63,109 nt of DNA, filler included, from Rhabdomonas costata (GCA_019059605.1; 39 parts of 39 records of this genome joined end to end with filler, not necessarily neighbours in it), one strand, 5' to 3'. Positions 13,433-14,375 are shown, numbered from the whole stretch's first letter. A program made the numbers and translations. The notes: a model not told the origin generated them from the letters alone.

Positions 13433-14375
13433 CCAGAAGGCCCTGCTCGCAAATGGCCTGCAGCACCAGCCTCCCAATGCGTCCAAACCCGTTGATCCCC
13501 ACTCGGACTTTCTGCAATGGACAGGGGAACCAGGCACAGGTGATTCACGACAAAAGCAAGGGCGAAGCAAAGAGAAGAGAGAGAGATAGAGGAAAGGTGG
13601 CGGGGGGAAGGGACGCCGACTGCACTGGCGGCTCAAGGTCTCGGTTTTGTGTTTCGCCCAAAGGGAAGCGAGCCAGATGTCAAGGGCAAACATTATAAAA
13701 TTACAGCAGATAATTTTCGGATCAATAATTATGGGGACATATGGGTTACAGATCAAGGTGAGCGATGAGGGACGAGGGCTGGCGTGTGTCGCAGATTGTT
13801 ACGGTATCGCATAACTGGCGGTATCATGGGCCACTCCTCAGCTGTATCCAAGCCTTAATGCAAACCAATGCCTCCATTCTTTTCGGGTAATGATGCCTGA
13901 CTGAGGGCACGGCCCCCTTTCACCCCCACCCATTGGTCCAAAAAGTACTCGAGCGCAACTCGCAACTCTCGTATCCTCGATCGCAGAAGCATCCACACCG
14001 CTGATAGACGATTTCGCTGGGGTTATAGGGCGATCCATTACATGCGACTGCGCCTGTGGTGGTGATTGGTTCAAACAACAATAGTTATGCTCGGCTGCTG
14101 CTGACTGCAGGCTGCTGCACATCAAACGTGAAGCCATCGTTTATCAACAATTATCAACTGAATAATTGAACATCTGCAACGTTCCCCACCAACACAGAGA
14201 CACAAGCAGGCGGATATACCTTGGGGGAACGGGAGCTAAGCCAGTGGGCGGCGAACCGCGGCACATCCCCGGGCCGCTCCTTCACCAGGTCCAGCACCAT
14301 CTCATTCAGGAGCTGCGGGATGCAGTGCTGTAGCAGGTAGGCCTCATCCTTGGCCGAGGTGGGTCCCCCAGACAT
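13433..14375 (-). CDS. GAPDH: GAPDH (euglenozoan type) with an N-terminal RIIa/Dpy-30-like dimerization-docking domain; exons 14375-14220 and 13511-13433, 3' truncated
   Basis: Exon 1 (52 codons from ATG) reads [58 protein letters not shown]. Exon 2, after TTGCAG, reads [29 protein letters not shown]. Both junction sides are phase 0. Confidence 0.8.

Follow-up and report, generated by a model that had tools for sequence, protein, structure and literature searches.

One contig of the analyzed DNA carries what we read as a nuclear gene's 5′ end; the source is most likely a euglenid. Its two predicted coding exons encode a small docking domain and the start of a GAPDH, and supply the first 79 codons of the fusion gene; the remaining GAPDH part lies outside the window (Table 1). 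The window, i.e., the whole stretch of 63,109 bases, is not one locus and consists of 39 separate contigs joined end to end. Scanning it revealed 38 regularly spaced occurrences of the spacer N45-TTAATTAATTAA-N45, which delimit 39 pieces of 1511–1532 bp each (about 1521 bp). The pieces are separate, mutually unrelated short contigs of a very fragmented assembly. Any feature crossing a spacer is therefore an artefact, and the genomic context of the fusion gene is confined to the single contig listed in the first row of Table 1.

Table 1. Predicted features of the contig carrying the fusion gene; positions are counted from the first base of the window.
Feature	Position	Strand	Remarks
Contig with the complete finding	12969..14489	minus	1521 bp; bounded by spacers
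Candidate 5′ UTR	14376..14448	minus	preceded by a pyrimidine run and AG (CTCCCTCTTTTTGTTTTTAG, AG 14448–14447)
Exon 1 (predicted)	14375..14220	minus	52 codons from ATG (14375–14373); Dpy-30/RIIa-type domain
Intron 1 (predicted)	14219..13512	minus	708 nt, GTATAT...TTGCAG; GT 14219–14218, AG 13513–13512
Exon 2 (predicted)	13511..13431	minus	27 codons; GAPDH N-terminus with NAD-binding motif, no Met
Start of intron 2 (predicted)	12969..13430	minus	GTGTGT...; runs to the contig end

Predicted exons and splice signals

The exon coordinates and translations proposed in the first-pass annotation proved correct in every instance when checked against the sequence and its translation. The frame of exon 1 is open upstream to the contig end, and homologous proteins begin at the equivalent Met. 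The AG dinucleotide preceding the candidate 5′ UTR may serve as an acceptor for spliced-leader trans-splicing or close an intron located farther upstream; spliced-leader trans-splicing is reported to be widespread in a euglenid (PMC3621762). At the 3′ end of intron 1, pyrimidines account for 78% of the 78 nt preceding the terminal AG. Splicing as predicted would connect the end of exon 1 (...TCCCCCAAG) to the start of exon 2 (AAAGTCCGAG).

Going upstream from the acceptor, the reading frame of exon 2 meets a stop after eleven codons, none of which is an ATG. Since exon 2 also has no Met of its own, an upstream coding exon is needed, and without one the first possible start would fall beyond the NAD-binding motif. 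GT/AG signals and phase alone do not discriminate among candidates for this exon, because 40 ATG-to-GT phase-0 combinations are present upstream of the acceptor. It is homology at the protein level that singles out the pairing of exon 1 with exon 2 among the 40.

Intron 1 also contains a 100-codon frame (13841–14140, minus strand), Met-initiated from 14137, with a GTAATG donor located 32 codons after this ATG. The frame produced no Pfam match and may be either a chance occurrence or an alternative first exon. No GAPDH-like ORF was found in 12969..13430, and tblastn searches with full-length fused proteins of Euglena gracilis (P0016) and Eutreptiella (P0019) returned no other significant GAPDH piece in the window. 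Rfam and tRNA scans across the window yielded no RNA genes.

Several other pieces of the window deviate in composition from the GC of about 0.52 found in most of them. The contig at 47014–48534 (minus strand; GC 0.25) forms a single unbroken frame of 506 codons from end to end, with a weak C2H2 zinc-finger match (E 0.0057) under the cut-off, and may be of viral, organellar or contaminant rather than nuclear origin. A second AT-rich contig, 8108–9629 (minus strand; GC 0.22), has a similarly foreign-looking composition and holds two Lys/Asn-rich frames (262 and 248 codons), neither of which matches Pfam. Lower GC was also observed in pieces 51867–53387 (0.35) and 61590–63109 (0.44).

Homologues with the same architecture

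An exhaustive phmmer search with exon 1 against 1.84 billion representative proteins produced 12 matches at E ≤ 1e-3. The top real matches were P0004 (2.4e-9), P0006 (3.1e-8) and P0007 (1.1e-6), and in all three the domain passes uninterrupted into the start of GAPDH within one ORF, with no intron at the junction. P0004 represents the beginning of a 405-aa protein labelled Eutreptiella (UniRef, MMETSP), and P0007 belongs to a 90% cluster together with a 405-aa E. gracilis transcript product (EukProt label EP00667 P012038, EG_transcript_12332). P0019 is a 405-aa Eutreptiella transcript product, and fused forms also include P0018, a partial form of 239 aa from a JGI record. P0005, a repetitive protein of 1682 aa among the 12 matches, was disregarded as having no aligned stretch.

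A tblastn search of the window with P0006 yielded two collinear matches (E 1.4e-15 and 1.5e-14), which share just one query residue and terminate at the donor and acceptor sites. The first Met and the GAPDH motif are equally far apart in the predicted spliced product of the window and in the uninterrupted homologues, and the junction reads SPK/KVRVG in the window versus APKRIRVG in P0006. Alignment of five sequences revealed 19 columns invariant in all five, among them Pro51 and Lys52 at the junction. Exon 2 is 71–86% identical to the matching stretch of P0019, P0016 and P0006, the last being the closest (86%); P0006 ends at the ...LLG position corresponding to the end of exon 2.

Taken at the level of protein sequence, the docking domain–GAPDH fusion is real and conserved. 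It is not an accident of one contig, because its relatives possess the same contiguous architecture. The first-pass annotation had predicted a D/D-GAPDH protein and pointed to euglenid and diplonemid transcriptomes as the place to search for others; a euglenid source is in keeping with the nearest relatives, and the architecture is indeed contiguous in independent homologues, including the 405-aa transcript proteins of E. gracilis and Eutreptiella. These records also bear on the possibility of a chimeric contig, in which assembly or amplification would have placed an unrelated docking exon beside a GAPDH exon. The extreme fragmentation of the assembly, with contigs of about 1.5 kb, and the AT-rich, probably foreign pieces in the window would suit such an origin, but the same pairing, order and junction length recur in at least four independent records that stem from elsewhere. 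Since independent records reproduce the pairing, a chance chimera is very unlikely, and we give this explanation hardly any credence.

As for the copy in the window, its exon 1 and exon 2 are very probably fused by splicing. The alternative would be that no working mRNA combines them, the gene being a decaying paralogue or using another first exon, for example, from ATG 14137 to the GTAATG donor at 14041, with the docking exon left as a relic or an alternative isoform. This 32-codon stretch with its good donor is one of the 40 phase-0 combinations mentioned above, no identical longer protein was found in the collection searched, and a pseudogene is possible given that the contig holds only 27 GAPDH residues. 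The docking domain of the window copy is also far more diverged from the others (44–55% identity) than those of E. gracilis, Eutreptiella and P0018 are from one another (73–83%). Against this, both exons are open, with GC3 of 0.85 (exon 1) and 0.70 (exon 2) versus a GC of 0.51 in the intron and 0.47 in the flanks; all 19 invariant columns of the family and the NAD-binding motif are intact, the intron ORF matches nothing in Pfam, and the junction is exactly collinear with the homologues. We therefore regard the failure of the two exons to join as improbable and retain the spliced fusion as the preferred reading.

The window copy differs from the other copies in gene structure, as an intron splits the domain from GAPDH in the former, whereas both are contained in one exon in the latter. 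A search of longer proteins with exon 1 gave nine candidates, none at E ≤ 0.01, the word index being too coarse for 52 residues at about 50% identity. The collection of longer proteins includes an E. gracilis transcriptome; as it contained no protein identical to the window copy, this copy presumably comes from another organism or is unexpressed or unassembled. Judging from its sequence divergence, it would be either an older paralogue or an orthologue from a more distant euglenid-like lineage. A metagenome scan with a narrower alignment produced 111 pattern matches, none of which was confirmed.

Four ORFs from other public records (P0009, P0010, P0012 and P0015) contain a closely similar docking domain (YL..H/Y.IP.L...), followed after the conserved W-L/F by unrelated sequence, as if an intron follows. 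The docking module may thus tag proteins besides GAPDH.

The docking domain and the GAPDH part

Taken alone, exon 1 gives weak matches to Pfam RIIa (PF02197; E 0.099) and Dpy-30 (PF05186; E 0.1), scoring 12.8 bits for both families versus cut-offs of 22.4 and 22.0, respectively, and likewise weak ones to the solved Dpy-30-type chains DPY30D2 (0.032) and FAP385 (0.034). P0004 exceeds the Pfam Dpy-30 gathering score (23.2 versus 22.0), and at E ≤ 1 the Dpy-30 family matches 9 of the 11 aligned family members and RIIa 4 of the 11. The profile built from these 11 sequences, when searched against PDB, found the Chlamydomonas radial-spoke protein FAP385 as its best match (8.7e-6), followed by NME5 (2.8e-3), the D/D domain of PKA RI-alpha (3.9e-3) and DPY30 (5.4e-3). 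On the basis of these profile matches, the domain probably belongs to the Dpy-30/RIIa type at the family level, which supports the identity originally suggested for it.

The AlphaFold model of exon 1 (mean pLDDT 74.6) contains helices at residues 8–16, 19–33 and 38–49, i.e., a predicted helix-turn-helix core with a preceding helix, as in the Dpy-30 type. Among the Foldseek matches listed, almost all were Dpy-30/RIIa crystal structures or axonemal/ciliary cryo-EM complexes, with TM values of 0.5–0.7; this short model of 52 residues gave no Foldseek match at E ≤ 1e-3. A two-copy prediction supports a homodimer, with a score of 0.42 versus 0.02 for the best control, although this result may stem from the predictor's memory of solved D/D dimers. 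Among proteins of solved structure, 21 of 30 pairs and none of 23 single chains attained this mark; the homodimer runs agreed in at least 88% of contacts, with a partner pLDDT of at least 75. The nearest clusters in the protein Atlas (0.81–0.87, all below 0.9), some of them carrying RIIa or Dpy-30, serve as a lead only. We conclude that the N-terminal domain is probably a working dimerisation/docking module.

Exon 2 matches Pfam Gp_dh_N with E = 2.3e-7 and 31.5 bits, just under the cut-off of 31.7 because only 22 profile positions are present, and it contains the N-terminal Rossmann motif GxGxxG. The window copy includes 27 GAPDH residues, and its catalytic Cys and His and C-terminal domain lie off the contig. 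The full-length E. gracilis protein P0016 matches both Gp_dh_N (3.3e-30) and Gp_dh_C (4.5e-60). P0016 and P0019 possess the SNASCTTN sequence and the TxxHxxT histidine motif, at an offset of exactly +51 relative to canonical euglenid GapC. Since the Cys and His catalytic motifs are kept, the full-length fused GAPDH of E. gracilis is predicted to be active, unlike T. brucei GAPDHL.

The GAPDH columns of the family profile match the glycosomal GAPDHs of Leishmania, T. cruzi and T. brucei best (E of about 1e-24 to 1e-22), and any other solved GAPDH is a far poorer match (1e-6 versus 4e-24). The enzyme part shares about 80% identity with GapC of Peranema and Heteronema, and also with many bacterial GAPDHs. 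Only one of the best 120 matches to P0016, the Eutreptiella protein, covers the N-terminal domain; the others are proteins of 352–365 aa, many of them bacterial, at about 80% identity. The top-scoring match to the Euglena protein is P0020, a 709-aa Symbiodinium natans record that apparently comprises two tandem GAPDH units of the same bacterial-like type.

A quick maximum-likelihood tree was built from 45 sequences, namely six named euglenid rows and every third of P0022–P0136 from the P0016 match list. Columns filled in less than half of the rows were removed, which excluded the docking-domain columns, and the window copy was left out because of its 27 GAPDH residues. In this tree, the three fused GAPDHs are united in one clade (SH-aLRT 96), which is nested within a group of 14 (SH-aLRT 98) that also contains canonical GapC of Peranema, Heteronema and Eutreptiella. 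On this phylogeny, the fused forms are a separate paralogue clade of euglenid GapC, and Eutreptiella retains both fused and canonical GAPDH. The placement indicates that the fusion arose by duplication of euglenid GapC before the Euglena/Eutreptiella split.

Proposed role and comparison with known systems

We propose that the mature mRNA joins the 52-residue Dpy-30-type (RIIa clan) domain to a complete GAPDH that belongs to the GapC/glycosomal type of Euglenozoa, the two being connected by a six-residue linker that ends in the conserved Pro-Lys. The N-terminal domains would pair into an X-type helical bundle, whose groove would accept an amphipathic helix of an AKAP-like scaffold protein, so that the active GAPDH tetramer would be held at a fixed site. 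More tentatively, this site would most likely be the flagellum (axoneme or paraflagellar rod), where the docked enzyme could cycle NAD(H) and supply local ATP production with 1,3-bisphosphoglycerate. A precedent for such binding is provided by RSP3, whose amphipathic helices dock Dpy-30 and RIIa domains in radial spokes (PMC3494852). Overall, a nuclear euglenid-type D/D-GAPDH gene, the product of which is docked at a scaffold, most likely in the flagellum, appears to us a reasonably probable account and the best explanation of the data.

The flagellar docking site, taken separately, is a tentative assignment. It is suggested by the closest solved relatives of the domain, which are axonemal, and by the fact that the paraflagellar rod of trypanosomes contains a GAPDH-like protein. 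The fusion could also be real while its domain does not target the flagellum, serving instead to connect GAPDH tetramers with one another or with further enzymes that bear the domain in a cytosolic or pellicle assembly or filament, as a tether to the surface of another organelle, or in a moonlighting or regulatory role. The Foldseek PDB matches include the non-flagellar Dpy-30 complexes 7ud5, 4riq and 6e2h, the first two of which are nuclear methyltransferase complexes; since Dpy-30 domains also work outside flagella, axonemal relatives do not fix the location. The roughly six residues that separate the last helix from the first Rossmann strand may make pairing within a tetramer sterically hard, with pairing between tetramers being plausible, and the similar domains in P0009, P0010, P0012 and P0015, which have no visible GAPDH continuation, hint at a perhaps wider use of the module. 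Filament formation and moonlighting of GAPDH are also discussed in PMC4106842. What speaks for the flagellum instead is that the best PDB profile match is a radial-spoke protein, that NME5 was matched as well, and that nucleotide-metabolism enzymes fused to Dpy-30 are typically axonemal. Furthermore, Euglenozoa already have a GAPDH-like protein in the flagellum (PMC4106842). On balance, we consider a non-flagellar role less likely and retain flagellar docking as a tentative working assignment.

We further speculate, while holding the idea rather doubtful, that euglenids retain an active GAPDH incorporated into the flagellum (in the paraflagellar rod or the axoneme) via a Dpy-30-type docking domain, as a living version of a partial glycolytic pathway of the flagellum. 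Given the very short linker, docking domains of different tetramers may pair with one another and form a lattice, which could add a structural role. If true, this would be the counterpart of the flagellar pathway inferred by Brown et al. to have been lost in trypanosomatids (PMC4106842).

The first-pass annotation knew of no described D/D-GAPDH fusion, and our literature search agrees: no published description of a docking-domain–GAPDH fusion was found in the sources covered, which lay mostly outside subscription journals. The fused sequences themselves are already public and labelled simply as GAPDH, so that, judging from the database records, the architecture is present but unremarked in Euglena and Eutreptiella. 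The "GAPDH" annotation hides the extra domain because in most members the latter falls under the Pfam cut-offs. Energy enzymes anchored in flagella and enzymes tagged with Dpy-30/RIIa domains are already known as a kind; what is new is the GAPDH cargo, by which Dpy-30/RIIa domains gain a glycolytic enzyme among their cargoes.

ATP supply to flagella far from mitochondria is an old question, to which anchored glycolytic enzymes, as in sperm and Chlamydomonas, are one answer. To our knowledge, the sole flagellar GAPDH relative studied in Euglenozoa is catalytically dead, and this led to the proposal of a former flagellar glycolytic segment. With its catalytic motifs intact in both E. gracilis and Eutreptiella, the conserved fusion provides a concrete and testable candidate for such a segment. 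E. gracilis can be grown in culture, and purified flagella of this species have served for proteomics.

The enzyme part of the fusion belongs with canonical euglenid GapC and kinetoplastid glycosomal GAPDH. The canonical GapC forms are 353–355 aa long, start with M(A)P(V)KVGINGFG and differ from the fusion in having no docking domain at the start.

The T. brucei GAPDH-like protein (GAPDHL), a component of the paraflagellar rod, is likewise a euglenozoan GAPDH paralogue, and itself resides in the flagellum (PMC4106842). The authors of that paper argue that part of glycolysis ancestrally ran in the flagellum, a pathway since lost in trypanosomatids, and state that they found no evidence for derivation of TbGAPDHL from glycosomal GAPDH. 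TbGAPDHL lacks the catalytic Cys and is 21–32% identical to the active trypanosomatid isoforms (PMC4106842, Table 1). Its GINGFG motif is located at positions 18–23, preceded by about 17 residues; with no long N-terminal extension or docking domain in the sequence as given there, it presumably uses another anchoring mode. The euglenid fused forms keep the catalytic motifs, fall inside euglenid GapC and are not GAPDHL orthologues.

Mammalian sperm GAPDHS is also a dedicated isoform, held on a flagellar accessory structure by its N-terminal extension, and testis-specific GAPDH chains are among the PDB matches to the GAPDH part of the fusion. The GAPDHS extension is rich in proline and is not known to be a Dpy-30/RIIa domain, and its origin is independent of that of the euglenid fusion.

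The axonemal Dpy-30/RIIa proteins, including NME5/RSP23, DPY30D2, FAP385 and the central-pair Dpy-30, likewise combine a small helical D/D domain with an energy or nucleotide enzyme, and adenylate kinase 7 is another axonemal docking-domain enzyme. None of the PDB matches to the domain includes a glycolytic enzyme, whereas in the euglenid fusion the cargo is GAPDH, the domain is N-terminal and joined by a very short linker, and its helix binding is putative.
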